64,000 bases of DNA, taken from Blasia pusilla. Lineage: Eukaryota. Within the stretch, counting starts at the first letter, position 1, and each line of letters starts with the position of its first letter. The position numbers and the translations under genes are program-made. The DNA is taken from positions 34,720,001-34,784,000 of the forward strand of contig CM114271.1 of NCBI GenBank assembly GCA_050084515.1. The letters are read 5' to 3'. This document shows positions 1-62,620 of this stretch, piece by piece. The notes beneath the pieces were generated by a model. The model did no database searches. It saw only the letters and a program-made list of their open reading frames with translations, and was not told where the DNA came from.

Positions 1-185
1 TAGTCACTACGCTTACGATTTCAAGAGAGGATTGGAATTTGAGGGATGCTTCAACATTCCTAGAGTAGAGGGGACACCTTCTACTCAAACACCTTTCTCA
101 TTTTTGTCTTCTTGGTGGCTGCGGACTTCAGATTCTTACGAATTCAAAGTCTTTGACCCTTTTTTGTCATTTTCATCAATTCGCA

Positions 186-3100
186 ATGGTGAATACTAGT
201 ATGCTGCTCAAGATCAAGGACATCCCGAAATTCGACGGGACCTATTTCTATATCTGGCATTTTTGCATGATGTTGTTTCTAGATGCCAAAGGTTTAACAT
301 GCATTGTTGACGGCACGATTGTTAAGCCGACAACTGCCACTGCTTCTGCAACAGGAATAGGGAGTGTTCAAGAATGGGATACACTCAATAAGGTAGCCTT
401 ATCTATTATCGCGAATCGACTAGACAACTTGCAAGTCCATCATATTAGTGTTTCGAAGACGGCCGTTGAAGCTTGGTCCAAATTGGACACCTTATACCAA
501 GCGCGCGATGCCGTGACGAAAATGTACTTGCAAGATGAGCTTCAAACCCTCAAGATGAAGGAGGGAGACAGTGTTACTAAGCACGTTCACCAATTTTGCA
601 CCTTGATTGATCAACTTTCTGCCGCCCGCTCAGTAATTACAGATGAGAATCAGTATTTGGCATTGATGCGATCAATGCCCAATAGTTATCGCAATTTGCT
701 AACCTCTTTAAGAAGTCAAAAGAATCTGACTCTTCAGACGGTGATAACTTATCTTCTCTAGGAGGAGAAGATGATGAAGACGCAAACATCAGAGCCATCT
801 TTTGCACTTTTCGTTGGACGAGGCGTAGGTCCTTCCAATTATAAGCCGAAGTTTGGTGGCCACAAGCAAGGTGGCTATCCATCAAGAGGATACGATAGAG
901 GCAAGGTGCCTCAGAAAGGCGTTGGTTCTTTCATATCATGATTTGTTCATGCATTTTCAGCGAATTCATCCAAAGGAGAATCGCCAGGTAATACTGGTGA
1001 TTGGCAATCACTGTCCTCTAGTCAACAGAATAACTATCAAAGGATGAAGTGTTTTTAGTACAATCTGCTGGGAAATCATATCAAATTGCCGCAAGCGTCT
1101 TGCTGACCAGCAATTGCAATCCAAATCTCAGGTTCCCCAAGCCCATATGACTTCCCATCTGTTTGTTACAGTAGCATATTCCACTACGGGATTGGAAATC
1201 CAAGATAACATCTGGTATCTTGATACTAGAGCTACACATCACATGGCATTTTCCAGTGATTATTTTTCTAATTCTACTCCATACAAGCGGCCTGTGTATG
1301 TTTACCTTGGAGACATTTCGACTCAAGCAATTCATGGGACCGGCACGGTTGAGATTCTCCTCTCTGAAGGAACTCCACATTCTCTTTGAAATGTGCTGCA
1401 TATACCAAGCCTCAAGAAGAATTGATTTTCCGTTTAACATCTTGACGCAGTCGGAGGTTCAGCTTTGATCAGCAATGGCACATGTGTCCTATAAAATCCC
1501 AAAGGAGAATTGATAACTATTTGCTATCTTCTCAATGATTTGTATAAGTTGGGAGAAGTTGTTTACCTTCCCCATGTTCATCTTTTGTAGTCGCTAATGT
1601 AGTCCTTCCTCACTCGGATGCTTTTTGGCATTGCCATTTGGGACACATTAGTTCAACTCGTATTTCTCAACTTCAATCCCAATAGATGATGGATGGCATT
1701 CGTGATCACAATCCTTCTCACACTTCCTCTTGCACTGCTTGTCTGTATGGCAAGCAAACCCCCAAATCTTTTCCCTCTAGCATACTCGCACATAGAGCTT
1801 CTGGCATTCTTGATTTCATTCACACAAATATCTGCGGACCAATTTCTCCTCCTACTCATTCTGGGTCTGCTATTTCTTGCTATTTATTGATGATTTCTCT
1901 CGCTACATTTCACTTTATCTAATGCTGCACAAATTTGAGGGACTTCCCCGATTTGAGCGGTTTGTGGCATTAGTTGAGAATCTGCATCAACCACGTTGTG
2001 TCAAGATGCTTCGTTCTGACAATGGTGGCGAGTATCGATCCTCTGCTTTTAATGATTTTTGTATTTCGAGAGGCATTTCTAGAAAGTTTATTGTTCCTCA
2101 TACACCTCAGCAGAATGGCGTTTTTGAACAAAAGAACCGCACTCTTGTCAATTCAAGAATAACTCCTTCTTCACTAACTTTACTGACTAACTACAACTAC
2201 AAAAGAATAAAAGGATTTTCTTCCCTCTTGGAAAAGACTCTTCTCAAGCGCAGACAAAGACTCTTTCGAATCTGGAATAACAAAGCTGCAACAAAGACCT
2301 CAAGAATGGCGGCTCACCCTACTTTGAGAACTGAATCTGTCATGGCAGGTTACTCACTGTCTAACAACTTTCCTAAGCTTCTTGATTATCTTCAGAAATT
2401 TCGACATTTCAAGACTTAACTCTCATTCCTCCTATAGCCCAATAAGATTCTACACTCAACTCCGCACATAAAAAAGCATGAGAAAAGACACTTCAACTGC
2501 ATCAAAGAGTGGAACGAACTAGTACGTATTACAATCTTCAGAAAGTACAAGACTCTTTGGCTTGGATCATCCCCACAAAACTCCTTACACAATCTACCAA
2601 GACTATTGGGAAACTCAAGATATAAGGAAAAAATTCTAACCAATAGTATTGGGGAATTCAAGACACAAGGGAATGATCCCTTCTTCTTCTGAATTATGCT
2701 TTAAGTATTCTCTTTGAACAATTCTTGGCTCTGCCTATTCTACTCTAGAATTCTAATTGATAATCCTACCCTCCTTGGTTCAAATTCTCTAACCCTCCAT
2801 CTTCCTAAGGCGGTTGGTTGACCTGGAGATTCCGTTCTGCTCCCTTTTAAACCGCCGCGCCTCTTCATTTCCAGGTTCTGAAACCGCAGTGACGGTTTGG
2901 TCTTCACAGTCCTCGCGCTCTTTGCTATCCTATCTTCGTGATCCTATCTTCGCGAAGACTCTTATCCTTCTGTCGCCGTGAAGAATCCTCCTTGCGATTT
3001 CCTTTCAATCCGCTTTCTTCAAAACATTCTTTCTATTTCCTATTCTTTATACACCTTTCCGCTTTGTGAAAACTCTTTGCTTCCTCTTCCTTCTTAGAGT

Positions 3101-5470
3101 TCTTAGTCTTTGCTCTTGGGTCTTGGGTCTTTGTTCTTTGTATCCAATCTTCGCACAAAGACTACCTTTCAATCTTCTTTTGCAAAGAATCTTTTTCTAG
3201 TCTTCGTTGACAGTCTTCACCACTGTTCCTACTACGGTCTTCCTTGCGAAGTACCCGCGCCTCTTATTCTAGTTTCTTTTCCCGTCTTTTCCTACTTTTA
3301 CACCATTCTCACTCTTCCAAGATTGTCCTTAATCTCTTAGTATCTCTTGTCCTCTCATCAGATTTCTATCTATCAGTGTTTTTACACAATTTCGGTAAAG
3401 TATGCATCTTTACTTCCGATATTGAGTCATTAGTCTTCGCTCAAGCAAGACTTCTGGACAAAAAATGCTCTTTCCGTCAAAATTTCAAAAATGTGGGCAC
3501 TACAGCTTCTTATGATGCAGATGATGATCTAGCCATTCGTTCCGATTCACTTTTCTTCCGAGCTTCTCCGAATTCTTCTGGCTTGTTGCCACTTCCTTCC
3601 CCATTGCCCGTTCCATCTTTAATGGGAGTCCCAATTCACCAGGCATTTCCTCTTCAGTGGGAGTTCGCGCATCTCCATGTATTTCCTCTACCGTGGGAGG
3701 CTCTTCTTCTCCTACCTGTAAATCAACTTCTGGTGATGGGCGCCCGGATCTTTATTATGAATAGAGACCTCGGCCAAGCTCCCCTCCGCTTGCTAAACGG
3801 AGGAGTCCTCGGATTACCAAGTAGATTGAGCATTTCAACGCCCTTGCTGAAGATGAGAAAGATAAATAAAGAGCTTTTTAGAAGCGTTGGGCTCTTGTCT
3901 CTTTGACTGATTCTTTTTATGAACCTCAATCGTGTGAAGAAGCTAAGACCGGGCCGGATGCAATTCATTGGAAGTCTGTTGTTTCTGCCGAATTAGCCAA
4001 AATAGCCCGAATGCAGGCTTGGACTCTTGTGCCACTTCCTCATGATCGGAGTACTGTGGGTTATCCATGGGTTTTCAAGATTAAGCCCACATATGACGGC
4101 CGAATCCACAAATATAAAGCCCGGCTTGTTGCCAAGGGCTTCACTCAAATCTAGGATATAGACTACGAAGAGACGTTTTCTCCTACGGTGAAGTTACAAT
4201 CTCTTCGTCTTTTGATTTCTATTGCAGCTTATTTTAATCTTGACCTCCATCAGCTGGACGTCATTGCTGCTTTTCTATATGGTTTCTTGAAGCAGCAGAT
4301 TTTCATGGACCTTCCACAAGGGCTTTCAATTCCTGATCGCCACATGGTTTGTCTTCTTGGACAATCCATTTATGGGCTGAAGCAATCTACTCGAATGTGG
4401 TATGAGCGATTTCATTTTTCCCTACTTAACCTTGGCTTTGTCATCCTAACAGCAGATTCTAACATCTACATTTTGCACAAGGATTCTCAATTTCTTATTC
4501 TTGCACTCTATGTGGATGACACCATCCTGGCTAGCTCTAGCCCTGAACTTCTTACTTTTGTCAAAACTATGCTTCGCCAACAATTTGAGATGACCGACCT
4601 GGGTGAGGCGTATCACGTCTTAGGAATGCATATTCAACGCGATCATGAACATGGTTGGATAAGATTAAATCAAATGACATACCTGAAGAATAAGTTGACG
4701 CAATTTGAGATGTAGGACTGCAGGCCTATTTCTACCCCTTTTGATTTTTGTCTCCACCTTAGTAAAGACCATTCTTCTGTTGACGATGTTGAGATTGCTG
4801 CTATGTCTTTGATTTCTTATAAAAGTATTGCAAGTAGCCTTATGTGGGTGATGGTCTACACTCGCCCGGATATCGCCTTTGTTGTGAGCACCATTGCTTA
4901 GTTTATGACAAACCCATGTCCCATTCATTGGACAACAATCAAGCAAATTTTTTGCTATCTTCAGGGTTTCAATGACTATTTTCTCCAGTACCAGCGTTCG
5001 TCTGCTCCCTTTCAATTGGAAGGATATTTTGATGATGCCTACGATGACAATCTTGATTCTAGGAAGTCAACCAGTGGATTTTTCTTTCTTCTAGCCAGAG
5101 GAGCAGTTAGCTAGGCTAGTCTGAAGCAAAAATCGGTTGCTTTGTCTAGCACATAATCGGAGTACATAGCTATGACCAAAGCTAGTACTGAAGCTATCTG
5201 GTTAAAAGACTACTTTATGAAATTGGTTTTGCATAGAAAATTACTAAGATTTTTTGTGATAACGAGAGCGCTATCTCTTAAGTCAGTTCAAATAAACATC
5301 ATGATCGCACTAAACACATCGACATTCAGTATCATTTTATCAAAGACCAAGCGGCAAACTCAAGATGGTTTATGTTCCTACTGCAGATATGACTGCAAAT
5401 ATTTTTACTAAGGGTCTTTAGAAAGGCCCTCATTACAAGCATACTCGATCTCTAGGTTTATTTAGTTATG
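186..5470 (+). pseudogene. Copia gag-pol polyprotein pseudogene
   Basis: Fragmented ORFs 153-761, 1114-1389, 1877-2155, 3903-4154, 4188-4715, 4905-5114 are separated by stops and frameshifts; the integrase C-terminus is missing. Confidence 0.9.
2152..3504 (-). mobile_element. Foreign insert in the Copia integrase, probably an LTR fragment of another (Gypsy-like) element
   Basis: Copia homology stops after NRTLVN(S) at ~2152 and appears to resume at ~3505. On the minus strand the insert starts TGTAGTGCCC, typical of an LTR start. No TSD found. Confidence 0.4.
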
Positions 5471-5503: not shown

Positions 5504-5820
5504 TGTTAGATTCTAGTAGATGAGCGCAACAAATCAGTCTATTAGTGTGTGCTACTTAGTTGATCCTTGTGTTTCACACACGGATCAACCAGGATGAACG
5601 AACTAGATTACCCTTGATTTTAGGGACAATTTCTGTCCACTAGTTTTCTTCTGATGTCATTTTATATTTGTACAATTGGAACGACGCATATATTGTTTAG
5701 CCTTCTTTCTCTATTAGTAGCGGAAATGTTGTATCCACATTTATTTCTTTTACGATTAGTAAATCTATTCTGAGCATTCTAGCATTTTCTCTTTCTTGAT
5801 CACTACTGATATCTTTTACA
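5504..5820 (+). repeat. Copia 3' LTR (317 bp, TG...CA) preceded by PPT TTGAGTGGGAG
   Basis: TGTTAG...TTTACA termini; colinear with the LTR at 11650-11965. Confidence 0.92.
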
Positions 5821-7169
5821 TGCTTGCCATACAAGCAGTGCAGGAGGAAGTGTGAGAAGGATTGTGATCACGAATGCCATCCATTATCTTTTGGAATTCA
5901 AGTTGAGAGATACGAGCTGAACTAATGTGTCCCAAACGGCAATGCCAAAGAGCAGCCAAATGAGGAAGGACTACATTAGCGACTACAAAAGATGAACATG
6001 GGGAAGGTAAACAACTTCTCCCAACTTATACAAATCATTGAGAAGATAGCAAATAGTTATCAATTCTCCTTTGGGATTGTATAGGACACATGTGCCATTG
6101 CTGATCAAAGTTGAACGTCCAGCTGTATCAAGATGTTTGACGGAAAATCAATTCTTCTTGAGGCCTGGTATATGCAACACATTTCGAAGAGAATGTGGAG
6201 TTCCTTCAGAGAGGAGAATCTCAACCGTGCCGGTCCCATGAATTGCTTGAGTCGAAATGTCTCCAAGGTAAACATACACGGGCCGCTTGTATGGAGTAGA
6301 ATTGGAAAAATAATCATTGGAAAAATCCATGTGATGTGTAGCTCTAGTATCAAGATACCAAGTGTTATCTTGGATTTCCAATCCCGTATTGGAATATGCT
6401 ACTGTAACAAGCAGATGGGAAGTCATATGGGCTTGGGAAACCTGAGATTTGGATTGCAATTGCTGGTCAGCAAAGCGCTTGCGGCAATCTTTGATATGAT
6501 GTCCCAGTAGATTGCACTAAAAACACTTCATCCTTTGATAGTTATTCTGTTGACTAGAGGACGGTGACTGCCAATCACCAGTAGTATCCGACGATTCTCC
6601 TTTGGATGAATTCGCCGAAAATGCATGAACAAATCATGATATGAAAGAACCAACGCCTTTCTGAGGCACCTTGCCTCTACCGTATCCTCTTGATGGATAG
6701 CCACCTTGCTTGTGGCCACCAAACTTTGGCTTATAATTGGAAGGACCTATGCCTCGTCCAACAAAAAGTGCAGAAGACGGCTCTAATGTTTGCATCTTCA
6801 TCACCTTCTCCTCCTGGAGAAGATAAGTTATCACCGTCTAAAGAGTCACGTTATTCTGACCTCTTAAAGACGCTAGAAAATTGCAATAACTATTGGGCAT
6901 TGATTGCATCAATGCCAAATACTGATTCTCATCAGTAACTACTAAGCGGGCGGCAGAAAGTTGATCAATCAAGGTGCGAAATTGGTGAACGTGCTTAGTA
7001 ACACTATCTCCCTTCTTCATCTTGAGGGTTTGAAGCTCATCCTGCAAGTACATTTTCGTCAGGGCATCCCGCGCTTGGTATAAGCTGTCCAATTTGGACC
7101 AAGCTTCAGCGGCCGTTTTTGAAACACTAATATGATGGACTTGCCAATTGTCTAGTCGATTCGCGATAA
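5821..7169 (-). mobile_element. Second copy of the same Copia family (gag-protease-pre-integrase), antisense
   Basis: Reverse complement of window positions ~406-1756; ORFs 6148-6459 and 6634-6834 mirror the plus-strand copy. Confidence 0.92.
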
Positions 7170-9975
7170 AACCTTTCTCAAAAGTCTTCTTATTGTTGGC
7201 ATCCCACATGCATCCTTCTAAGAGTTCAATGCTTAAATAGGTGTATGTGGGCACAAGGAGGATCTCTTGTTCACTTCAATATTTTTTTTGGTCTTTGTCA
7301 ATACATTTGCCTCCATATCCACATTTCACACCAAATTAGGTCAAGGAGATCATCTTTTGGAGTTTCTCTCCCGCTTCCTCTAGACCACCAAAGTCATCAG
7401 CTAACATCGGCCATCCAGATACCTAGTCCAATATCCTATAATGGGGAATTGATTAAAATTTTGAAGAGGGTAGGGGAGAGTGGGCATTCTTGGGCCACTC
7501 CTTGCTTGATGTCAAATGTCAATAGGTCGGTTTCCCCTCTTTTTTCCTACCCTCGAAATTTGACTAACGATAAAGATGTAATCCACACATCCTCGGGCCT
7601 GCCAAAATCCACTATAGCCTTCCCTGATGACAACATTCTTCTCCAGAATATTAAGTATATGAAAAAAGGAGCTTCCCAACTACATTCACCAGTAGTTGGG
7701 AAGCTCTAATAATCCTAAATCAGTAAACTCCCCCTTATAGTTTCCAAGATCTTCAGGTTCACCTTTCTTAAAGAAGTTCATGATTACTCTTACCCGCTAG
7801 ACTAGGTTGAAGACACACATTAGAAAATGAGCCATAGCAGCATCCCATACTTCAATAGCTTATTCATAAATTCATTGTCACCGCCTACTTTGTGGTTCAT
7901 AAGTTATTTGATCAGTGCTCCCACCTCAACTAGGGAGAAGGAATCGTTATATGGGTTGCCCAACTCAACCTCACCCTCTACCTTCTCCCATTATATCTTA
8001 ACAAAATTCTCCACCACCTTCACAAATTTTTGCTCTTAAGAAGATGTTGAGGGGGCTTCTTGCCTAATTCCTTATAATGGTCTTCCAACAAATGTTGGAT
8101 CTGTTTAGCAATACATCTCACCGTAATTTTTTCTTCAAAACCTTTACGTTATTTTTGTCCCTGGCTTTGCTCAATTTCTACACTTCCATCCATAAATTTT
8201 ACCGATTTGCAGTGAAGTTCTTGTTGATGGATGAGTAGATTTCTTGGTTGAGTTTCTTCTTGTGCATACGCACCAAAAGACAAATTTCCTTGCGCAAGGC
8301 CACATAGTCTGCCCTCAAGAACCCATCGTCCTTGACATTGGCACATGCGACATATATTTTCCTTTGTTTGGCAATGGTTGCCTTAAGTTCCAAGGACTAC
8401 CATTTGATTTGATAGCTCTGCCACATATTATCAATTTCATGTTGACAATAATCTCTACATCTATCACTCCATGCTCCTACTATACCAACAAGATATCCAC
8501 AATTTTCCTTATGAACCCAAAGGTCTTAACAATAGATTCAAAATAAATGTCAAATATCAAGAGATTTTCTTCCAGCTTACCAATGTACACCTTCTTGTTC
8601 CCATGATCTTAGAAGTCCTCTATCCTCCATTTCTTACTGCTTGCTTCACTTCTTTGGTCGAGTATTTTAGTCTTTACTGCAACTCTATTTGATCAGGGAA
8701 TAATCTGATCTTCCAATATGTGTGGCATCCATCTTCATTGTTTCATTAGATGTGTGGATTTTCTCATCTACAACTATGTTATTCATAGTCAAGCCCTCAT
8801 TATTCTTGGAGTTGACCCTAGTCCAAGCCGGATAACCCGCCTTATATCTATCATTCAATGTCATTAGTTGAAGTTCCCTCAAGATCATGATTAGACGTGT
8901 GCTATTGCCATTAACTCTCACATCTCAAAACATTATGATCTTTTCTTGGGGATCAGTACCTTGCCACACCCAACTATTAAATTCTCCCAACAAGACTATA
9001 TTCCCCTTTGTGTGGAACCCAAGGCAATTTTTTTTCACGCTACCAAATGATTCCTCTATTACAACAAAAAATTCATTGTTTGTGGATTTACAAATCCCTT
9101 GAGTTGCACTCATCTCATACTTTGACCCATATTTTTTGTTCATACTTATGTGGTTGTTTGCCATGGTTGCACGGAAACGAACATGTCCATTCATGGAGCG
9201 GACATATCTAGACATGTCTGGATTAGTCAAGAAAAGTCTGTGGATATGCCCGACGGGTTCCCCACCCGGGTTGTTTCTGTACCCCAATGGCTCGCGCGAG
9301 CTCAAGATGTGGGAACAAATGCAGGCTCAGATTGCATGTGGGAGGAGGGGAAAAATCGGATCGCATGTAGCCCCAATCAGCCTGCCCCATGGAAGGCCCG
9401 CGATCAAGCTTGGGACAAGCCCACAACTAGACCCGAAATCTTCCCAGGAAATTGCGAGGAGTATCAATTTACCTTCCTCCCAAGATTATGAGGAGTATCA
9501 ATTCTCCATCATTCCAAGATAATATGTTGCTTTAGGCTTAAGGCCATTGATTATATGTAGAGGTTTGGCAAACCACTTATTTATGATTTGGGAAGAATGT
9601 TCAACCCAGCTGAAAGTCCATATAAGGACTCGTTCTCCTATTTATGGAGGAGGATTGCCTCCAAGCGGCAAGGTGCCCAAAGAAAGCCCACTTGTTACCT
9701 CCAGAGATCATAACTACATACCAAGACGAATATCCTTAGCATTAAGCTGCAGAAAAGGGCCCATGAATCCAACATTTAAAGAAGGAGAGGTCTCTATTTT
9801 TACTACTAATTTCACTTGATGCCTTACTTGTGGCACAAGTGCAACAAATCACATTGATTAGCAGACAGGATAATCCACACCTACCAACCAACAATGTCGC
9901 AAGCTTACAACAACGATATAAAAAGCTCACAACATGTTCCAACTAAAGCAAAAGGTGACTTCATAGAGAGTATTG
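7170..9975 (-). mobile_element. Degenerate LINE (5' region, APE endonuclease, RT), same family as 57956-62135
   Basis: APE-like motifs IVLLGEFNS and GRSDYSL; RT fragments (QGVAQ..LSP, YTYL); the 5' part matches 58075-58510. Confidence 0.85.
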
Positions 9976-11649: not shown

Positions 11650-12313
11650 TATTAGATTCTAGTAGATTAGCGCAACAAATCAGTCCATTAGTGTGCGCTA
11701 GTTAGTTGATCCTTGTGTTTCTCACACGGATCAACCAGGATGAACGGACTAGATTACCCTTGATTTTAGGGACAATTTCTGTCCACTAGTTTTCTTCTTA
11801 TGTCGTTTCATATTTGTAGAGTTAGAACGACGCATATATTTTTTAGCCTTCTTTCTCTATTAGTAGCGGAAAGTTTGTATCAGCATTCATTCCTTTTACG
11901 ATCAATAAATCTAGTCTGAGCATTCGAGCATTTTCTCTCTCTTGATCATTACTGATATTTTTACATGGTATGAGAGCCAAGTTGCTAGTCACTACGCTTA
12001 CAATTTCAAGAGAGGATTGGAATTTGAGGGACACTTCAACATTCCTAGAGTAGAGGGGACGCCTTCTATTGAAAGTTTTCTTGGTGGGTGCGGACTTCAG
12101 ATTCTTACGAATTCAAAGTCCTTGACCCTTTTCTGTCATTTTCATCAATTTGCAATGGTGAATACTAGTATGCTCCTTAAGATCAAGGAAATCCCAAAAT
12201 TTGACGGGACCTATTTCTATATCTGGCGTTTTTGCATGATGTTATTTCTAGACGCCAAAGATTTAGCAGGAACTCTTGACGGCACGATCATTAAGCCGAC
12301 AGCGGCCACTGCT
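11650..12313 (+). mobile_element. Copia 5' LTR (11650-11965) + PBS (11966-11977) + start of gag, truncated
   Basis: LTR matches 5504-5820. PBS TGGTATGAGAGC is one mismatch from the tRNA-iMet PBS TGGTATCAGAGC. gag start MVNTSMLLKIK. Confidence 0.92.
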
Positions 12314-13295
12314 CATAAGAAGGTGAAAAATCCATCAAGATTCCTACATTGTTGAGACAACACGTTAGAATTAGGCATTTTTTCATTCAACATACCATTT
12401 ATCCCTCATTAAAATATGTGCAATAGTGTGGGAGGAAAGGCTTGAAGTTGTGTAACTAAAATGTTTTGGGGTATGATGTCCGCTTCCTCACAAATGGATA
12501 GACATGGTGTAAGATCAAAACTGAGAGTGGAACCAAGGTTGCACACGGACAAAGTCTATGTTTGCAGATTTATGTCTGTCCCTAGGATGAATATGTTCAT
12601 GCGGTCCTAGGTTCACACGGACCCCATTCGGATCCACCCCGCTTGCAACGTAGACTCAGGCTTAGCCAGCCTCTACCCAATCCAGCGAACCATTGCTCGC
12701 CCCTTCTTTCCACCTATTCTGTAGCCCACTATAAGCCATCGCTAGGCCTACATCAAGATTGCCTGGCCTGCACTGACACAAAGGGTTCAAAATTATCCCG
12801 CACAGGTAGCCTACACGCATGGGCTTGATGGAATCTTCTTGAATCCGAGCATGCATGTGTTTTGAGCTCCTGCACAGTGGTCCTTGCGGGCCTTATTTAA
12901 GCCGACCGTGGACCAAGAAGGCTCGATATAGGCCACGTACGGGCTTGATGCGGGTCTAGCAAGGGCTCATAGCCTTTATACATGTTCAATACCTACCCCT
13001 GCCCGTTCACACATCCCAAGCCCGTGCGCGTGATCAGCCTACCAGAAAGACCAGGACGAGGGATCCGTTGGGCATGTCCCTCCCATGGATTGACAAGTCG
13101 ATTTCTGTGCAACCTTGAGTGGAATCCTTGGATGATAGAGGTCGCATCACCAAGTTGAAATGGCGGAGGTAGTTGGAGACAATGGACTCCCATTGCTATC
13201 ATAAAGGGAAAATTTGGGTCCAAAGAAGATTTGTAAAGCAGGCCAAATCTTGGACAAAAAAGGTCCAAGAGATTTTGCAAGCAACTAAGCTCCCC
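12314..13295 (+). mobile_element. LINE 3' RT-region fragment, interrupted by a hAT MITE
   Basis: Matches 60906-61325 on both sides of the MITE. Confidence 0.8.
12534..13117. mobile_element. Non-autonomous hAT-type MITE
   Basis: TIR CAAGGTTGCACA...TGTGCAACCTTG; 8-bp TSD AGTGGAAC (12526-12533)/AGTGGAAT (13118-13125); the LINE is contiguous across the insertion. Confidence 0.88.
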
Positions 13296-14232
13296 ACAAT
13301 GACTACTCTAGTCTGAATGATATCAATGGTGATGAAAAAATATTGGAAACTCAATACTGAAGCTTGGACGTTGGTGTTGAAGGATAGAGCAACTAGCACT
13401 AGAATCATGACAATGGTACCAAAAAAAAAAAGCGGCAGCAAATATGGAATGGTGATTAGTAGCAAATTTCCAATGGTCATATATAGTAATAGCAACGATG
13501 GCGGATGGCAAGAGATTGACTGTTGGCTGAAGCCCTGATGACTTAGTGATGCTCTAATAGGTTGACGGTTGAGGGAATAAAAATATGATGATGGGCATCA
13601 TGACCTGTTGATGGCCATATTGACGGGAGGCTATTGCGAGCTTCCTGTGGTTTGAAGAGAGCTTCCGTTGGGTTGAAGAGAGGAAGTTTTTTTTGTTAAC
13701 ATTTTTGCAATTTTGTTCCTTATGCTTAGTCACTCTCACAGATTGGTTTTTTCTCTTCCACATTCCGGCAACCCGTCTAAATCCGACGGGTTGCAAGTTG
13801 CACAAAATAAATAAAACTGAAAAAATCATTGGAATCACAAATGTGGAACAAATCACTTTTTCTATCCAAGGTCTAAAAAAAAATCATTATTTTTCCATAG
13901 CTGATTAGAGTTCAAGCTCATAGTGAACATTTTGGCACTTCAAAGTACAATCAAAGATCTCATTTTGCATCCTCAAAGTGGTTTGTTTAGGACCTTCGCA
14001 CTTCTTTGAGGGATAAAATTGGTTGGTGGATTCCTACTCCTATCTCTAACTCTCTTAAAACTACAAGCAACACATAGTACATGAGCTTACAAGGGAAATA
14101 CCTTTTCCCACTTGTCTCTCTTTAGACAAAGTCATCACATGAACATGTGGGAAAGCAACAGATGTGTACCACATACATCCTTGTCACACTTGAATTCACA
14201 GTGTTGTTCTTGACCCAATACATCCTTCCTAT

Positions 14233-17200
14233 TCAATTGCCACTATGAACATCTTTTATGGCGATGATTTCCATGTTTGCCTTTCGAGCTGATGCGATTC
14301 GCTTTGCTCTCTCCACCGTTGGCCTACACATTCTGTTTCTCTTCACCTCATTTCTAGACTCAAACAGAAATAGTGGATTGAGATCATCCACCTTCTCCGG
14401 GTACATGTTGACATCAATCTTGGGTTGAATCCGAAATGCGAAGGTCTCTTTAATGCAAACATGGTCTGAACTCCCTCCATCTAAGAGTCTGAAACTGGCA
14501 CTCGTAAAATTGTCCACTTCCTCTAGAGTGCAATTGGTATCTGCAACAATGGGCCAAATCGTGGGGGTATTCCGTGGAACTCCAATGGCAGCCAGATAAG
14601 ACTTTCGGAAAGCGGATGATTCATTTGGGCAGAAGAAGTACTTCAATTGATCCTCGATTCTAGTAAAATGATCAAAGGTTTTCAGCCTCCATAAGCCTGG
14701 GAGTGGTCGTCTTGTCCTTGTATAGTTCTTATTTAGGAAAGTGCCACATGCTCTCCTAATGCCATCTGATCTTGCCCTGCAAGTGGGGCCACATCTAGGG
14801 TTGCTTCGAGAAATATGCCATCGCTTGAGGTTGCAATCAACCTCAACAACCAGAATCCCATACTGTTGAACTACCCTCGAGATTGTATATTGGGAAGTTC
14901 GAGTAACACACGGATTTTGAAATAAAACATCCACTGATTTTGCAGAAGGTACTTCAACCCAAATTTGGGGGAAGTCTGGTGTCTCCAAATACCCGAGCAG
15001 GGTAATTTCATCATCCAAATCAATCACCGGATTCTTTCCTCGATATTGACGCTTAATTTTCTTGAAGTCAATATACTTATCAGGTCTCCAAGAGTCTCGT
15101 TCAGACTGCTCTACTACCCTCTGTATGGGACGTCTCGAAATACGCCCACAAATTTCCCCACCAATATGGACGTCTTTCTCGAGAGGAGTTCCAACTACAC
15201 ACCGATTGAAGGCTTCCACAGACAATTTTCATCCCCAGATCTCACAACGGCTCCAACATAGAGCTTGTAAATCGAAGGGCCCTTTCCCTTGGTTATGCCT
15301 TTTGTAAGGAAGATGTGGGATGTTGCACATTGTAGCATTGCTCTTGCCTGGTCTTATTGGCATGCCTCAACGAGAGATATTTTTTTGACATGTTTGTGAT
15401 GATCTCTAAGAGGAATTGACACTCTTGGCTCCACTTGTGTTGGGGCAGAGGGCATTCTCGTGAATGTTTAGTCCCTCCACAAGAAAATTTGTCAATTGAT
15501 GGAGAGAAAGCCTAAGTGTTCAATGCTTCAAGAAGCATTGAAGCATTCAAGAAGCATTCAATTGAAAACAACCAACCTGTCAATAAGATGTATGAACAGA
15601 ACTTGGACACAACGGGTTGCCAACAACTACCAACCCGGGAGTGGTTCCGACGCGTTGCAGCATGTAATTTGCAAGACAAGCAGCAAACCATCAGATTTCG
15701 ACAGGTTGCAAGTAGAACATTTTTGAAAAAAGCCGCTTGCAACCCGTCAAATAGCAATGCAACTCGTCACAAGATAAAAAAATTCAGAAAAAATTTGACA
15801 CGAGTCAGATTCTGACGAGTTGCAAGATGAAAGTTTTTCACACAAAAGTTACTTGCAACCCGTAGGATTCTGACGGGTTGCAAGATGAACTTTTTTCGCA
15901 AAAAAGTAACTTGCAACCCGTCACATTCTGACGGGTTGCAAGCCATTGAATTTGGATAGGTCGCACTGTGATGTAACATATCGGTTCCAACAAGTTGCTT
16001 TACCTACCTATTTTGCAACCCGTACGATTCTGACGAGTTGCAATGTCACACTTGGACTACATACTTGGAAAAAATGGGGAAAACTCACGTGCTGCATAAA
16101 GTTTCCCCATTGCCCATTCGAACGGTCCACCAACTGAGCCACGAACACAACTCTTTGTATTTCCCCTCAATCGTATGCTTTCTCCACCACACTTGAAGCT
16201 CTTCTTGGCACTTCATGGCTTGTTTCAAGGTTTTGCTATCCTTGCAGCGTTGAAGTACAGCTACATGCTCTGTTCTCTTAGTCTCCTTGATGTAGAATTT
16301 TGTGTAGCGAGTCACAGATTGTTTCCAATGGAAAGCATCCGATATTCCCCTTTCTGGTTGAAAGACGATTTTGCTGATAGCAATCCATCCGGAAAATATC
16401 AAAGCTAACCCAGCTCCCAAATAGATCTTCTCCCTCCCTCATTCTGTCAAAAAGATCCAGGCCGCTAGACAACCCTGTAGTAGACATTTTGAAGACATAA
16501 GCTCTAGATCCCTCGCCTCCTTGGCCCATGAAATACCATCTCTGAATGAATGGAAATCGTGAGTTGGCCTTGATCTTGGCAATGGCATCCATCTCGTGGT
16601 TTTTCCGTCAAGTATTCGTATTTGATGCAATAAGTTCCTGAAGCTTTCAAGATCAGCCAAGAATGCCAAATTTTCCCATAGTTGTTTCTTCTGAGCTGCC
16701 ATGATCTCCCCTTGGCCACGAATACCTAGTAGTTGTTCACAAATATGTGATGGAGTTGTCAATTTGATCACTTTGGGCTTTGATCTCGGAGAATTTTTGT
16801 ATATCTCAGCCACTTTCTTTGCCATATCCTCCTTGATGTGTCTCTGAATTGCACCCGTGACAGGATGAGTGTGACACCCAACATGAATTGCTTGCCTTGT
16901 GTACTCGGACGTAGAACTGTAGTCGTGCACTATGAAAAACATATAAGTCGGACACGTTGTAACATAGAAAGGGAAGGCTTGATAATGCAAACATCGATGG
17001 CCACCGGACGGTATAGTCGTACCCACGGCGTAAGGAGTTTCAGCATTTTTTGGGGGAAATTGTGACGTATTCACGACTCCGTTCCTCTCGAGGAAGGGGC
17101 ATCTTGGACTTCTGCACTCTAAAGCTCCAACGCATTGGTGACGAGACACAATCCAAGGACCACTTGGGATTGAAGCACTCGTTCGCTGCAGTCTACACCA

Positions 17201-17320
17201 TCGGTGATACTCCAATTTTTGGTGCATACCCTTCAAGCAACCTCCATCTTTCTTTTGAGCAAGACCGACAAGTGGAGGCAGCTCAAAAATGCAGCTTCCA
17301 TCATACGTTGCTAGCAACTC
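14233..17320 (-). pseudogene. GCM-like zinc-finger, Mutator-like transposase pseudogene (putative intron ~15512-16088)
   Basis: ORF 16439-17413 has W..C(VGALE)C..PRC..C..CP..HVGCHTHP (GCM/WRKY-type Zn finger). Then VFKMS..GLDLFDRM..WVSFD (candidate first catalytic D), SDAFHW (degenerate CxxH) and WLSWW. The C-terminal ORF 14233-15225 has WHISR..C..C..FFC..IWP. The DDE core appears internally deleted. Confidence 0.65.
15600..16045. repeat. Cluster of ~8 degenerate 29-bp palindromes in the transposase intron
   Basis: e.g. TTGCAACCCGTAGGATTCTGACGGGTTGCA (15853) and TTGCAACCCGTCACATTCTGACGGGTTGCA (15911). Confidence 0.9.
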
Positions 17321-18429
17321 ATCCAGAGATGAGGTAGCAAGAAAGGTTGGAAAATCTAGCTCCGAAGAAGCTCGCAAAGCAAGAGGAGAAGCGGGAAGAA
17401 AAATGGCTCGCAAAGGCGCAGAAGGCCGAGAAGAAATGCATGGAGGCGGAGATTAAGCAGAAGAAGATGCAAGACGCCGCCTTCCGGAAAGCCAAATTGG
17501 CAAAAGCCAGGAAGGAAAATGCAGTCGCTATAGAAGAAGAACCCTCCCAGCAACCCATCGAGAGTGTGGAAATGGAGGATGTGTCATCTATGAGGTGAGT
17601 GGGAAAATGCAAGAGACCAACACCGACGAGCTTCCAGAGATAAACAAGGAAGCTGTTAGAACCCCGAGTGTTGAGATCATGGAGATCTCGGAAGGAGAAG
17701 GAGAAGAGTCTTCTACATCTTAGAACCCTGTTGAAGAATTTGACTTGTTTGCAATTGAAGAGTTTCAAGTGGACTTGCCGGATGAGGCTCCAGAACAGCT
17801 CGCTGGACTTGACACCGACCCCATTTTTGAGCGGGTAAGCATTGTTCTACATTTCTCTTTGCATTGCATTGCTTCCAGTCCTTATGAAAACTGGAATTAA
17901 TAGTGGTGACATTCACGCAGGTGGTGAAGCATATGGCACAGGTGGATGGTCCGAACACCCCGAGGATTCCTCTCTGCCTATTCCGAACGATGGAATACGT
18001 TCGAGAAATCCAATCCGAGGGAGACATTGACAAGTTGAAGTTGTTTGTGGCAACAGCTTCACATGTGGATAGCTTCCCACCTTTCTATGTTCAACCTTAT
18101 GATGAGCATGGAACCCAGGCTTTGGTAACTGAGGAAGACCTAGAGAGTCTGGATGCTTTCTAGAGGCTGAGGGATGTGGAGTTCTGGAAGGCAGTGGCAA
18201 GAACCCAGTACAAGTGGATGCAAAACTTGTACTTCTTCATCTAGGATGGCAACCACCGATTCATGGCATGGTCGAGGTTTGCAGCGGAGCGACCAAACTC
18301 CCTTGAGGCTCATTTCTGTGTGAGGGCGGTGGTTCTCCATCCCTACCCGAATCATATGGCCACCGTGGAGATGGCCATGCACTCCATTATCACGTAAGTA
18401 TCCTGAAACTTTTCTCCCAAATATGAACC

Positions 18430-19090
18430 CGTTTCAACCTGTTGGACTCGGACGGGTTGGTTCTTAGCAGCAATCGTTAAAGATAGCAACAACCCGTCAG
18501 AAGGCGACGCATTGCAATAGGAAGAACTCCTTGCCATATTTGCAATCCATCGGACTCCGACGGATTGCATTTGGCAATCTATTGAGTTGCTTGGCAACCC
18601 GTCGGAATCGGACGGATTGCATTTGGCAATCTATTGAGTTGTCTGGCAACCCGTCGGAGTCCGACGGGTTGCACAAACTCGAGTGTTGCTATCCCAATAG
18701 GACTGGCCTTGCAACCCGTCGGACTCTAACGGGTTGGAAGAGCAGGGATGTCTTGCAACCTGTTGGAATCCGACGGATTGCAAGAGAAAAAACTTACCTC
18801 TAAATCCTCAACCCCGATGCAAATATAATACCCGGTGTGGGTGGCTTTGCAACTCGTCGGTTTCCGACGCATTGAATTTACGAATGTAGTGGATGGTGGT
18901 GCAACCCGTCGGACTCCGACGGGTTGCAACCCAACTCCTTCGACAAGACGCAACCCGGATGCAACTTGTCGGTTTCCAACGGAGTGCACTGAGAAAGCTT
19001 GTGGAGCAACCCCTCGGACTTTGACGGGTTGCAAGCAGTTGTCATTTTGTTTGTCTATTTCAAACCCGTAAAAAACCAACGGGTTGCTAT
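18430..19090. repeat. Cluster of ~12 29-bp palindromes in a ParB-gene intron
   Basis: Perfect copy TGCAACCCGTCGGACTCCGACGGGTTGCA at 18900-18928; others mostly every ~45-65 bp. Confidence 0.93.
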
Positions 19091-21154
19091 TAGTAAATGT
19101 TCTTACTTCTCATTGTTGTTTGCAGCATTGTGTCGGAAGGGAATATTACCCATCACTGGATCCAAAAATACGCCTGAGTGAGGAAGGTTCTTACAACGCA
19201 CCCATCGCAATACAAAGGATTCCTTGGAGAGGATCCGAGTTGGTGGATGAGATGCTCGCAAAAGGAGCACAAATCAAAAAGAAGACTTGGGCCAACACAT
19301 TCATTTCCCAAGATGCAACTATTACAATTCTCTACAGGTCAAAAATCCAGGCAGCAAAAAGAAGCGTGACACTGGAGCTGGAGTGGAGAGGGAATGTTTC
19401 AGCTTCTGAGAGAGCGAAGTTCATTCAGGCTGTGGTGTCGTCGGCGACCACGTACCTTGCAAAAAAGATGCAACGGTACATCGCCATCCTCAACCCCAAG
19501 CTCGGGCCCGAATTTTACACAAAGTTGAAGGCCATAATCAAGCGGTAGCAAAAGAGGGACGAGGATCCATACGGACGAATTATAGTGAAGGTGTCTTTGG
19601 ATCGAGTTCGCCCTCTCGGGGATTTCAGAATTCAAGCAGATCCGACTGATGAAGATCAATCTATAGGGAATGGAGGAAGAGAAAAAATTGGCACACCATG
19701 GGTGGTGTCCGACCCACTCATTTCCCAGTGGCTGCGAGAATGGTCCATTTAGGATGCCTTGCACTTGCTAGGAAAGGCAATGATTGAGTGCCTTCAAGCC
19801 GACTTGTAGAGAATTCAGCCAGTTCCGGAGGAGGCTAGCCTCGAATCGGCAGAGGAGTACGAGTTGTGGTTGAATGACATCCGGGATAAGCCAACAAAGA
19901 ACCCCGGGTTCAAGAAGATGATCAAGAGCCTAATTATGCCGCAGGGGGATGTCGACGAGGAGATTGGCGACCCGAAGAAATGGAACTTTGCCAAAAAGAA
20001 GAAGGAGCTTCAAGATCAAGCTACCAATTCATCCCGCCATTGAGCTGAGCAGAGGATGGTGTTCATATTCTTGACTTCCTCTATGAATGCAGGAACATGG
20101 AGGAAGTTCTCAACGGTGCTCAAGCTATGGGCAGATACTCCAGATGGCAAAGGATTGTCCATGTATGATGTGGAGATGGCACTCGACATGAGCCCTTGGG
20201 AAGTGCTAAACTGTTCAATCTGGTTGGACTTCAATGACCCTGATGAGCTCACTGATCTAGCAAAGCGAGACTTGTATAATGCGCTAGCTGCTAGCGAGGA
20301 GGACATCCCAAAAATTTTCAAGATGGAGGAGTACTTCGAAGGGGATGGCGAGGCACAAGCGATTGAGGCGGCTGAGATTTTGTCAAAAATTGTAAGAGTA
20401 AAAGACAAGTCCATTGTGGGGTTGAAATCCAAGGTGAAGGGCCCCAAACCATCCAAGGTAAGATCATCTAGGCAAGAAGGGCGGCAACGAGAGGCCCCGA
20501 AAGAGAATCCTATGGATTCTGAGGTCACGGTGACCCCAAAAAGCAAGCACCCCACTCGCGAGAAGTGAAAGAGGGAGACACCCGATTCCTCCGAGGGGGG
20601 GAACAAGAATGTAGTCTTTACTCCTTCATTGTTGGGGAAGCACACGGACAGAGCATCAAAAATCACCATCTTGCTGCATCAAACATCATTGTTGGAAGAA
20701 CTGGAGAGGTTCTCCACACAAGAGTCCACGTCTTCCCTGGAGAAGCTGACACTCTTGGGATGAAAGCTTTCACGAAACGGCCATGCCCTGTGGACTGTCA
20801 ATGGGGTACATGAGGAGGTTGCAATTGACCTCCTCATCGCAGATCTACCATCGAGGCTTAGATTGTGGGCAGAGAACCCATGCGACCCAATTCCGGATTG
20901 GAACATTCCCTTCACATATGACCAGATCGCCTTGATGTTCTCCTTTGCCAACGCGTATCTGAGTGACACGGGATATTTCCTTGTTCTCACCGATGGCAGC
21001 GAGGATGAGCTCTTCAACTTGCAGTGCGTCAAGCAATCGTTGAAGTGGCAAATAGTGTTGTATTGGGTTGTGAAGAACGAAAACCCGCTGAGGTCAGCTA
21101 CAAATCAACTCTTGGTAAGTCTGAAAAACTTATGCAACTTTTTTCTTTTTTTCT

Positions 21155-21425
21155 TGCAACCCGTCCAACTGCGACAGGTTGCTCAACACACATCAGAACT
21201 AGAGTGGTGATGCAACCTGTCGGACTCTCACGGGTTGCACATTGACCCTTACACGGACTGTGCAACATGTCCGACTCCGATGGGTTGCACATGGACCCTC
21301 CCATGGCCTGTGCAACCCGTCGAAACCCGACGGGTTGCACATCCACAGTTTGTGAGCAACTTGTCGGAATCCGACGGGTTGCATCGCCCCCAACTTTGCA
21401 ACCCCAGATTCCGTTGGTGACATCT
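21155..21425. repeat. Cluster of ~6 29-bp palindromes in the intron after the MTase-like exon
   Basis: Copies at ~21155, 21211, 21261, 21311, 21356 and 21398 (~50-bp period). Confidence 0.9.
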
Positions 21426-22194
21426 GACATTTCCAACCCGTCGAGTTGCTCTTGGAAGACCTTTTCCTTGATTCTTAGCTGATTTTTATGGTGAGAATGA
21501 GTGGCGGAAACATTCTCTGCCTTGAGTCTCGGAACAACTTGTTTGCACTTTTCCAGGAGGCAAAGTCATAGTACAATAGGTTGATGGGCGTTTACCAAAT
21601 GCCTGCACGGATCAATGAACCTGCATTGGAGCCACTGGTTGTGACGCCATCCTCACTACTAGTGATCCCAAAACTCGGAAGGGCAAGCCCACCGGTGATT
21701 CTAGAGGAGTTGTCGGATGATGACAAGTGATTGTAGGTGCATTGGATTTCAAGCATTTTGGAGTTGATATGTGTTGGTTCTTGGGGAGGAGCAAATATTG
21801 ATATCAATGGGTTTCCCTTTGTAGAAGCTTCAAAATCACCTATCCGGGCAGCGTTGGTACTTTTCTCGGGCCACAGGGGACCGATACGGGGTTCCTAGGG
21901 GAACAAGGCTCTCACATCCTCCTTCCTTCTCAATTCCAATCTACAATTGTGTAGAGGAGCCACTGACTAGCCCTAAGAAGTCACTTGTAGAGGCATCGGC
22001 AAGAGTTAGAAATATTTTTGTAGATGACGAGGTTGAAGAGATCATAGACTAGATTTTCTTCTTCAGGAAATCAAATGTAAATAACCGATTGGCATAAATA
22101 CAATCGATGTTTTGCACCCAATTCTCTTCACGCTTATAGTCTGATGTTATTTTTGTTAACACATTCCAAAATTGGGGTGAGGCTTTTCTGCTGT

Positions 22195-22605
22195 TGCAAT
22201 CCCTCGGAAACCGACGGGTTGCCTGAAAGGGTCTTTGAACTGCAATCTCTTTTCACATTTACATTTTGCCTGAAAATATCTTCACTACAATGTCTTTTCA
22301 CTGTACCAAGACCAATTTGTTTCCTTCTATTCTTTTGGTGTGGTGTGCGTGCTCTCCTGGACTCTAATATTCGGTTGGAGTGGTTGGTAACCCGTTTGAT
22401 TCCGAAGGGTTGAGAACCACTCCAACTGATGGAAAATGTCAGTTTTTGCAGATGGTCTAGTCTTGCAACCCGTTGGAGTCCAACGGGTTGCAAGATCACC
22501 TAAACCAGGGACAATACAGTCTTGCAACCCGTCGGAATCCGATGGGCTGCAAGATATCCAAATGCAGACAATCCTTGCAACCTGTCGAATTCCGACGCGT
22601 TGCAT
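22195..22605. repeat. Cluster of ~5 palindromes downstream of the ParB/MTase-like gene
   Basis: Includes the perfect 17+1+17 palindrome TCTTGCAACCCGTTGGA-G-TCCAACGGGTTGCAAGA at 22461-22495. Confidence 0.9.
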
Positions 22606-25184
22606 GTCTAAATAAATGGACCTGGTTGCTTAGCAGTCTCCCTCTTCACTCTTGACAGCTACCAACCTCTTGCTTCCATTGTCCTCTTAGTCCTTCCATG
22701 CAGGTTTTTTTCTCGATGCATATATTTCCTTGTGGCTTAGAGAATGGTGAAACCAAGTTGTCAAACGCCCAGCAATCTCCTATGGACTCCATGCACCCAT
22801 GCAAGAGCCAACATATGTAACTAAATCGTGGCCTCTGAGTTTTCTAGAATATCCAATTTTTTGGAATATCCAGGGCTGTCATGAAAACCATCGGCTACGC
22901 TCAATGGTCAGAGTTTACTGTGAGCCGATTTCAAGTGTTCTATTGTGGAAAATCCCATTTGATGGATCAGTATTGATCGGATGGGATTTTTCATATCTTG
23001 ATGCATCAAGAGCCCTCCTACCCAACACGGTGAGGGTGGGAGTCCTACATCGATGGTCCATAAGTAAAACCCTCAAGGACACTATAGTCTATTGACATAA
23101 TAGTCAATCTTTATTAGCACCTATTATTGTTCTGAAATTGTTTGTACTAATAAAATTATTCCTAGATAGTCCTCCAACAATATTACCCCCTTTGGGTGGC
23201 TTACTCTATAGTCGGCTTAGACTAGTAATGTGAAAAAAATTTGGCTCACATAGAGAATGCTGGAAGCATGTTTGAAGTGGTCTTCTTATGTCTACTTGTT
23301 TTTCCAAGCCTGGAAAAAACAAGGTTAGTTTATGCCCCAATCTAGTCCACTTGCTACTCTCTTCTAAAGTTTTTTTGCATTTGAAAGCAAAAAAAAAATA
23401 CAGAAATGTCAAAAAGTTTTGAAGAGAGGAGGCAGATTCTGCTTTTTTTTTAAAGAGAGACTCTCCTCTCTTCCTCTCCTCTCTTACTCTCTCATGCCAG
23501 AATACCAGCTCCCAACGAAGCAACTAGGTCGGAGCTACAGGTAAGGAGGACAGTGTCGACTGAAGGGTGTTGGTTAATAGCAACCGCATGATTGCATTAG
23601 AGAGCAAGACAAATTTGATGAGATCCTAGTGGATGTTGTGATCAACATCTAGGCTTCATTTTCTATGGTAACTTGTTGTAACAGGTAGGCATGACCCAAA
23701 CGAACTTCAATCCACTTCACATTTTTTGTTAACTTGGAAAGATAATCTGCAAGTGCCAGACAGGTAGAAAAAGTAGAGTGTCTACTTGCACATCATTTTG
23801 ACACCCGTCCAATTTTGTGTCATTCCCCCACTAGTCTTATTCTAATGTAAGTCGGGCAAGAGCTGCACAGGGGCCATTTGGAAGGCGTTGCGGCTCAGGA
23901 AAGGCACCCGAGGTTTATGAGACTCTGTCAATTCTTGATGAATGATTTCAGTGAGGTGTATAGTCTACGGGCCGCTCCAACAACGGCCATTACGAGGCGA
24001 TATGTACAAATACGGTGAATGCACCTCCGTCGGCAAATATTAAGTACGAGCGGTAGGCATGGGATGGATTTTTTCACTATGTGGGAGGGATGGTTATGGA
24101 TGTGGTAAGGTGATACATGTGGTCCAGTTTGGTATCCACTACTTTTGGTGGAACAGAAGAGGCGGCTATGGAACTGACGGGCCCTGATGAGGGAAGGCTA
24201 GTTGGGAGAGGGGAGATGATGAGTCTTATCATGTACTGGAACGAAGAGTTCAACTTGTTCTTTGTTTTGATCTTACCATGGCTCCTATAGTGAAGTATTT
24301 TTTATTTTTATTCTATTTTCTAGATCTCTGATCTTATTAGGGTTCTCATGTAGGTATTAAGGTTTCACAAATAGCGATGTAGTGGATCTCCTCATGTAAC
24401 TTCCTTTCTTCATCCAAATCACCCCCCTCCCCCTTCTACATTCACCTTTATTTTTCATCTTTATTTTTTGCTCACCCTTGATTCATGGTTGTCTCCATTG
24501 CTATACCCTTAGCTAAACCCTTATTTCCATCCATTTTGATCTAGATTTGTCTATTCACTTCCAACATTCTTAGTATCTTCATGAAGCCACTAGTTATGTT
24601 TGGACAAGCGGTTTGGGTTTAGAAGTCTTAAGTAATGAAGGTAGATGAGAGTTTATTCTAGGGAGATCAATTTGAATAGTGGGAATTATCTCTTGAGTTT
24701 GATGGAGGGGGTCATATTCTCTTGTTGGTGAATTATATCCATGCCTCGACCCTCACCAATCCCCGGTATGGGGACCCATGGGTCGTCTAGTTGGGATACG
24801 AAATGCACTTTTTTTCGAATACGAAATAGGTTTAGGGTCAAGTTGATGACCTACGCGCATAGGTCACCAAAGGAAGCTGAGGGTATACCTCAAGTAGAAT
24901 CAGTTTGAAGAACCCATGTTCAATAGCCTATATTCCTTTCATAAAAATGAAAGTGAGAACCCCAATCAACTACGGCAGATAATATTGTAAAAGGCTTTCT
25001 TGTTCATACTTAGAAGTTCGGAATAAAAATATCTATAATCAATATTAATATTATATAAAATGGTATCTATGTACTAATTTTTTTTCCTCTCATTTATGCT
25101 TGCATTTTTTTACTCATTTTTCTTATGTTATTTTATCTTGTTCATTGCTCACTTAGTCCATGCGTATGTTTTATTCTTACGTGC

Positions 25185-39030: not shown

Positions 39031-39099
39031 TGCCAAAAAAATTACTATAGCAAATTCTAAGGAATCTCAATTGATATGGATGCCAAGTACATCTCAATA

Positions 39100-57955: not shown

Positions 57956-62620
<4,665 letters not shown>

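Follow-up and report, generated by a model that had tools for sequence, protein, structure and literature searches.

The window analysed here, a 64-kb stretch of DNA taken as a whole, contains a 473-nt exon on the plus strand at 17921-18393, running from phase 0 to phase 2 between an acceptor AG at 17919-17920 and a donor GT at 18394-18395. These are exactly the boundaries proposed by the first-pass annotation, which had read the sequence as a cryptic ParB-like exon hidden by stop codons. The frame runs VVKH...RIPLCLFRTMEYVREIQSEGDIDKLK...PFYVQ...LDAF-stop-RL...YFFI-stop-DGNHRFMAW...AMHSIIT, and the pattern of the family is IPLC..VR..GY..F.V..W...W......F..DGNHR...W..H..V...AM..N. Checked on the letters, the two TAG codons at 18161-18163 and 18242-18244 are the only stops in the frame, as had been claimed.

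The homology of the exon is not a matter of chance, because a phmmer search of 1.84 billion proteins with the read-through exon (157 residues) recovered 107 cluster representatives at E<=1e-3, the best at E 2.5e-20 with 32% identity; 26 proteins reached E<=1e-10. Seventy-three of the 107 were aligned, with the longest proteins and many short fragments omitted. The residues of DGNHR, on whose conservation in homologues the first reading had been made to depend, are retained in 64 (D), 69 (G), 72 (N), 70 (H) and 66 (R) of the 73. The TAG at 18161 occupies a column that is Trp in 72 of 73 relatives, and the TAG at 18242, directly before DGNHR, occupies a column that is Trp in 40 (Phe in 12, Cys in 7 and Tyr in 7). 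Judged from these columns, the suggested origin of both stops from TGG is probable. The 18161 codon is preceded by C, so the changed base would be a minus-strand CHG cytosine, and the codon at 18242 has the same C-TAG context.

Thirty relatives were looked up, and all 11 that carry an organism name come from Riccia sorocarpa (nine) or Adiantum (two). In a quick tree of 70 domains, built with no prokaryotic outgroup and so uninformative on origin, the domain from the window groups with three Riccia proteins (SH 0.925), which points to a liverwort as the likely host. The relatives are annotated as hypothetical proteins or as 'trimethylguanosine synthase'. Viral contigs contained no relative of the exon, the ParB domain found no meaningful match among plasmids or phages (its sole phage row stands at E 0.2), and a first metagenome scan with the relative P0022 gave no match. 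Word-index protein searches, limited to 'longer' lengths and thus weak evidence, returned nothing for the exon or for the frames at 14236-15228 and 16281-16607. In prokaryote genomes four stretches matched the exon, one of which was confirmed by tblastn; it could be a prokaryotic relative or plant contamination.

The AlphaFold2 model of the read-through exon is confident (pLDDT 91.4, pTM 0.86). In a structure comparison with 48,161 chains, KorB ranked first (Z 8.4, rmsd 2.3, 91 residues aligned) and PadC followed (Z 8.1), both scores barely exceeding the background range of the tool, 7-8; Arabidopsis sulfiredoxin (6.8), a ParB-N domain (6.4) and SerK (6.2) came next. The eight rows with Z>=5 are KorB, PadC, sulfiredoxin (twice), ParB-N, SerK, Atu1540 and SbnI, the last two of which we take to share the ParB/Srx fold. 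The first ten Foldseek rows are Noc, ParB or Srx proteins, with a best E of 0.011 and none at E<=0.001. The individual structural scores are middling; the hit lists contain hardly anything but the ParB/Srx fold. The assignment to this fold, made originally from the order of motifs, is thus supported by the confidence of the model and by the KorB, PadC, Srx and Noc/ParB rows at the top. The profile search that had been proposed as the first check gave a negative answer, as Pfam ParBc matched neither the exon nor any of 74 aligned members. Pfam DndB matched two of the 74 at E 0.066, and NCBIfam DGQHR matched one of seven scanned proteins at E 0.0011, with 18.8 bits against a cutoff of 58.85. No ParB hit was returned by the Pfam, PHROGs and PDB sequence searches.

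The catalytic cysteine of sulfiredoxin is the C of its G-C-H-R motif. The corresponding column is Asn in 72 of the 73 relatives and Cys in none, which sets the family apart from sulfiredoxin. The GxxR box is intact in the window copy and conserved among the aligned relatives (G in 69 of 73, R in 66 of 73). GxxR is described as the phosphate-binding box II P motif of the ParB fold, whose choice of nucleotide neither sequence nor AlphaFold3 can predict (PMC12704722). The predicted structure and the alignment together support the conclusion that the product of the exon adopts the ParB/Srx fold and retains an intact phosphate-binding GxxR box. No ParA-family match was found among eight frames of the element, and no helix-turn-helix match was found in the region after the ParB domain. 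A second model, of the relative P0017 (pLDDT 80.6), has helices after the ParB domain for which searches returned only generic helical rows. A homodimer prediction, run without an alignment, scored 0.00 and speaks neither for nor against dimerization.

Remnants of the same gene lie on both sides of the exon. Upstream, at 17329-17834 on the plus strand, is a coding remnant that is Lys/Glu-rich and then acidic, is interrupted by stops and a change of frame, and ends at a phase-0 donor GT at 17835; the relatives have long low-complexity N-termini. Downstream, the ParB exon is joined in frame, across a phase-2 intron, to an acceptor AG at 19124-19125, and the resumed frame aligns with Riccia proteins, whose full-length members tblastn tracked along 19124-21000. 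A phase-2 donor directly after AMxxxN is present in seven of the eight related loci in which the motif is readable. The long exon that follows (19126-21114, plus strand, donor GT at 21115) encodes a helical region, in which YIAILNPKLGPEF of the window corresponds to YATIVNPQLGPEF of Riccia, a linker and, from about 20820, the first half of a methylase-like domain. The gene is a pseudogene, because downstream of the ParB exon it carries seven further stops (19175, 19546, 19750, 19807, 20041, 20566 and 20761) and a frameshift near 19231. A possible remnant of the last exon at 21480-21712 on the plus strand was recognized by eye and gave no match to profiles, and the window copy yielded no exon with the SAM-binding motif I. 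Residues 165-700 of the Riccia protein P0111, a relative of window 17921-20400, point by their atlas features to fungal DUF3723 (0.82), which may be a related ParB-fold accessory protein. DUF3723 is a conserved cargo gene of Starship elements, and the Starship preprint, in the portion that concerns this domain, does not term it ParB.

The identity of the methylase-like domain was assigned through the full-length Riccia proteins P0111 and P0112. These match PF01555 at E 5e-5 and 2.5e-5, both below the gathering score, and phage DNA-methyltransferase PHROGs at E down to 2.4e-7; a PDB sequence search with P0112 gave no match. In both proteins D-L-P precedes VIDFAGGWG, which is the permuted order, with motif IV before the SAM-binding motif I. 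The half domain in the window (IDLLIADLPS...IPDWN) is weakly linked to the Riccia methylase (E 0.002, 0.009-0.07 and 0.026), and a profile built from it as seed detects the counterpart exon of related loci with E values down to 1e-40. Proteins of ten relatives were scanned for SET and 2OG families with no match. The encoded protein thus consists, in order, of a low-complexity N-terminus, a ParB/Srx fold, a helical region and a circularly permuted methylase-like domain of the beta-class N4-cytosine/N6-adenine type. Motif IV takes the form D-[LVIM]-P-x, with DLPS in the window, DLPT and DMPS in Riccia, and DVPS, DVPR and DIPE in other loci. The catalytic motif of such methyltransferases is of the DPPY/SPPY type (PMC8885841). 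Judging from the motif, catalytic activity of the domain is doubtful, because the aromatic residue of DPPY/SPPY is absent from all family members but one, the fern protein P0080 (DVPF).

To the left of this gene, on the opposite strand, are the remains of a transposase gene. The 5' part (16088-17317, minus strand) has a GCM/WRKY-like zinc-finger region at about 16859-17317, a WVSFD region with the first Asp, and a (C/D)xxH-W region that extends to QWGNFMQH at a donor GT near 16088. WRKY-GCM1 fingers are DNA-binding domains of MULE transposases (PMC1702500). The atlas ranks first, for the minus-strand frame, a cluster in which 12% of members bear GCM (0.92, 176 shared features), and a FAR1-named cluster scores 0.91. 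No piece matched a Pfam or NCBIfam transposase, and there was no Pfam match to GCM. All 30 bins into which 13000-23500 was divided are covered by contigs in four runs (drawn from at most two samples); a run contributes 1,372-2,592 contigs, of 80-100% identity and mostly below 95%. Compared with related loci, about 70 codons that include the second Asp are missing from the window transposase near 16362, where contigs of three of the four runs diverge as loose ends.

In two related loci read by eye, L067 and L056, FD... is followed by TAD, by CLFH 29 residues on, and then by NLAE or NVAE. This spacing agrees with the rule for MULE and hAT transposases, in which (C/D)xxH lies 15-45 residues past the second Asp with Glu further on (PMC5499845), the motif being common to hAT. 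The FHW region of the window aligns to L067 (z 7.3), and its catalytic-Glu region has no alignment (z<1). A Glu-to-Lys change had been suspected there and was dropped, as the region fails to align. The probable 3' part of the transposase gene (14233-15500, minus strand) comprises a 331-codon open frame at 14236-15228 and a broken piece upstream of it; it is covered by the repeat family and was assigned from its position. The open frame had no protein match, though it is still open in an otherwise ruined element.

The element as a whole extends over approximately 13700-22700, or about 9 kb. Terminal inverted repeats, termini and a target-site duplication were not located in the window copy, which is old. 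A 21-bp tandem repeat at 13638-13682, a possible subterminal feature, lies just left of the first of the palindromes described below. In the related locus L047, outward-facing inverted arms of 35 nt (5635-5669 and 13713-13747) flank remnants of both the transposase and ParB genes; we take them to resemble the ends of neighbouring hAT-type elements, not those of the ParB element. Just left of the element, at 13119-13294, is a fragment 79% identical to a LINE-type element at 58463-61337 (plus strand), which has a 470-codon RVT_1 frame. Fragments of copia-type LTR elements (gag_2, rve, RVT_2) occur at 69-5066, 6148-7275 and 11915-12355, with gag pieces repeated on both strands. The only clear host gene seen in the window is a GT29 sialyltransferase-like gene at 46696-47967 (plus strand), an intact 423-codon frame with a Pfam E of 5.8e-34. 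A GC-rich stretch at 36545-39121 has short tandem repeats and a frame at 38444-38827 with a zinc-knuckle-like CWTCGGAHRQRDC and no Pfam match, and a 291-bp tandem duplication together with long (CT)n tracts occupies 57300-57890, 57876-57954 and 62004-62137.

When metagenomes were scanned with the ParB exon, 152 relatives were confirmed, and the best 80 of them collapse to 43 distinct intron-bearing loci. Among these best 80 of 152, 24 distinct loci extend at least 3 kb downstream, and 19 of them have a methylase-like exon there, in the same orientation. Of the 21 loci with at least 5 kb of upstream sequence, six have a homologue of the transposase gene there, on the opposite strand, and in the other 15 none was detected; of the six, four have catalytic parts and two the finger region only, and side and strand are identical in all. 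The element is very probably a DNA transposon with two genes, at home in seed-free land plants, in which a Mutator-like DDE transposase gene with a GCM-like finger is divergent from the accessory gene. Alternatively, the exon might stem from a host gene acquired horizontally, or from bacterial or phage contamination, with the transposase as a chance neighbour. This reading draws on the report that prophages are the typical setting of ParB-N6_N4 methylase fusions (PMC12704722) and on the single tblastn-confirmed prokaryotic stretch. It is nevertheless very improbable in view of the spliceosomal introns at conserved positions, the organism-named relatives (11 of the 30 looked up) that are all Riccia or Adiantum, the many dispersed and broken copies, the constant side and strand in six of six transposase-bearing loci, and the viral contigs and plasmids that hold no relative, with E 0.2 for the sole phage row. 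The exon very probably belongs to a decayed ParB-methylase accessory gene of a DNA transposon. The first-pass annotation was right to see a real ParB-fold exon; the exon is no working host exon hidden from view but part of a pseudogenized transposon gene, a setting that the annotation did not recognize.

Decay is general in the family. The ParB core is broken by stops or frameshifts in 41 of the 43 related loci (among the best 80 of 152 relatives), and all three kinds of stop are present in such loci, TAG being the commonest (77 of 131). Median pairwise dN/dS falls from 0.56 through 0.38 and 0.32 to 0.23 with rising dS, for 251 usable pairs of 903 that are not independent of one another. This is the pattern of a coding sequence that is under selection in active lineages and decays at the tips. 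Contigs that diverge from the window at 18139 read LEKLDTF in place of LESLDAF, with three of seven codons silently changed, and end before the stop. C>T or G>A changes account for 55 of the 109 mismatches among the palindromes. Methylation-driven deamination is a likely cause of the stops, with a weak case for the two sites in the exon; a CHG context at two of the three TAGs in Trp columns is weak evidence. That both stops stand at Trp columns could also be read as the mark of a working gene in which UAG is corrected to Trp by read-through or by A-to-I editing. Such a gene is scarcely credible here, as the same gene has TGA stops, TAGs elsewhere and a frameshift, related loci have stops of all three kinds, and among palindrome mismatches, too, G>A/C>T changes prevail. 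The TAGs of the exon are post-insertion decay, and neither read-through nor editing is needed.

The non-coding parts of the element contain arrays of a 29-bp palindrome. With up to eight mismatches allowed, 28 copies are present from 13767 to 22604, none in the other 55 kb of the 64-kb window and none in 20 shuffles. No copy falls in a coding segment, though coding segments make up 64% of the span. Twelve copies of the form TGCAACCCGTCGGA-N-TCCGACGGGTTGCA, mostly 44-65 bp apart, fill the intron directly after the ParB exon (18433-19088), five occupy the intron that follows the methylase-like exon (21155-21383), at intervals of 44-56 bp, and five are in the transposase intron (15682-16042). One copy (13767-13795) is near the left end of the element and five (22195-22604) are near the right end. 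Thus 22 of the 28 are internal and intronic, 17 of them within the accessory gene. Other palindromes of 26-27 bp occur in 13 of the 43 related loci (among the best 80 of 152 relatives), against 0.4 hits per shuffled set, and the remaining 30 have neither palindrome family. In the related loci they are found upstream of the ParB exon, at a distance of 0.5-1.8 kb, and ahead of the methylase exon, there as arrays with a period of about 51 bp, and one family shares a CAAC..TCGG..CCGA..GTTG core with the window. Viral contigs contained no exact palindrome.

The palindrome clusters contain local tandem duplications with periods of 50, 52 and 58. Such duplication, and the difference in sequence between these palindromes and those of related loci, would also fit an unrelated MITE or minisatellite that invaded the element and survived only in its non-coding parts. 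An invader of this kind is quite improbable, considering that the other 55 kb of the window has no copy and that related loci have a similar core and a spacing of about 51 bp in comparable places. A second alternative accepts the element and assigns the palindromes to the GCM finger of the transposase, with the ParB-methylase protein acting independently of them; it might, for instance, be an enzyme under NTP regulation that works on transposition intermediates. Palindromic repeats, both terminal and subterminal, are binding targets of the Muta1 transposase (PMC5499845), palindromes lie near both ends of the element as subterminal repeats do in foldback MULEs, and the accessory protein has no identified DNA-binding domain. 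This assignment is somewhat unlikely, since most copies are intronic and concentrated in the accessory gene, palindromes of related loci cluster around the ParB and methylase exons even where no transposase is detectable, and the inverted-repeat arrays described for Plavaka elements also adjoin a ParB-type gene in the company of a transposase of another superfamily.

In active copies, the accessory protein may serve as a self-recognition factor for its own element. We lean towards the view that it binds the palindromes of the element as a dimer, in which case NTP binding in the ParB domain could act as a switch between loading and release. Sliding or spreading from the palindromes, as ParB spreads from parS, would be a further step and is unlikely. 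The protein would keep its own element transcribed or mobile. By one route it would write 4mC or 6mA on the element, a tentative possibility that the degenerate catalytic motif makes less probable. By another, a dead methylase fold would bind or shield cytosines against host 5mC silencing, in analogy to VANC. The full scheme, a complete ParB-parS module carried by Mutator-like transposons in seed-free plants, liverworts and ferns included, with an NTP-gated clamp on intronic palindromes, spreading, and either 4mC/6mA writing or masking of cytosines against 5mC silencing, is rather improbable as a whole. If it holds, ParB clamps would, together with red-algal PAG3 and perhaps fungal DUF3723, be a general tool of eukaryotic transposons, and ParB-methylase modules would be a possible source of plant 4mC enzymes. 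The copy in the window no longer works, and red algae offer a precedent for the general idea. A spliced, multicopy ParB-methylase under purifying selection and its lineage-specific palindromes form a defined, testable pair of protein and site, which bears on how transposons evade silencing and on the origin of 4mC/6mA enzymes in early land plants.

Comparison with known systems begins with the fold. The domain resembles KorB (8qa8), ParB/Spo0J (6sdk), Noc (7ol9), PadC (6ryk) and sulfiredoxin (6ky4) in fold and in the GxxR box. It differs from the first four in having no parA neighbour and no recognized helix-turn-helix, and from sulfiredoxin in having Asn in place of the catalytic Cys. The ParB fold is often found on mobile elements, binds CTP, ATP or GTP, and is commonly fused to N6_N4 methylases in prophages (PMC12704722); ParB-Tls loci have also been described (PMC4738411). 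Like the phage and prophage fusions as described there, the plant protein has the ParB fold first and a PF01555-type methylase second. Unlike them, it has introns and a degenerate motif IV, its ParB domain carries an insert of about 45 residues, and several hundred residues separate that domain from the methylase. The phage matches are weak (E 0.01-0.4) and do not support descent from a phage fusion.

Bacterial-type beta-class amino-methyltransferases have precedents in eukaryotes, including a liverwort, in MpDN4MT1a/b of Marchantia, which have TSPPY and, as presented, no added domains (10.1101/2021.02.12.428880), and in the bdelloid N4CMT (PMC8885841). Those are described as host enzymes with (T)SPPY, whereas the plant ParB family has D-x-P-x, a ParB domain and the position of transposon cargo. 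The clades of eukaryotic adenine methylases set out in the cited part of a review include no such land-plant clade (PMC4738411). ParB clamps have been described from prokaryotes. The 2025 survey of ParB describes bacterial, archaeal and phage fusions, and the word 'plant' is absent from its main text (PMC12704722). In the cited portion of a 2026 preprint on transposon regulators ParB is unmentioned (10.64898/2026.08.24.746577).

A functional analogy is offered by VANC of the Arabidopsis VANDAL elements, which are Mutator-like, and for which binding and hypomethylation have been shown experimentally (PMC5735166). VANC too is an accessory gene of a Mu-like element, and its target repeats, like the palindromes here, lie in introns and in intergenic and terminal non-coding DNA and differ between related families. 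The likeness is limited to function, as no ParB or methylase domain is mentioned in the account of VANC cited here (PMC5735166). VANC is also the only self-modifying system named in the cited text of the preprint on the red alga Bostrychia (10.1101/2025.02.11.637652).

The closest precedent, by analogy, is the PAG3/PAG2 pair of the Plavaka elements of Bostrychia. PAG3 is a ParB-like protein with a 2OG-oxygenase and lies beside tandem inverted repeats, PAG2 combines PF01555 with SET, and PAG homologues are also reported in Chondrus Mutator, Zisupton and Fanzor elements (10.1101/2025.02.11.637652). From that description, both systems place an N-terminally ParB-like accessory protein and a PF01555 methylase in a eukaryotic DNA transposon next to arrays of inverted repeats, both are known mostly from degenerate copies, and in both self-binding is a proposal. 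In Plavaka, ParB shares its protein with a 2OG-oxygenase, and the methylase, joined to SET, has a gene of its own, whereas in the window element ParB and methylase form one polypeptide. The red-algal elements are mostly of the EnSpm/Plavaka type, whereas the present one is GCM/Mutator-like, carries its repeats in introns and belongs to land plants; the two are likened by description, not by sequence. A literature search, with most subscription journals outside its scope, found no land-plant ParB-methylase transposon gene beyond the precedents cited. ParB accessory genes in transposons are already known from red algae, and what is new here is a fused ParB-methylase in a GCM/Mutator-like element of land plants with arrays of palindromes in its introns.
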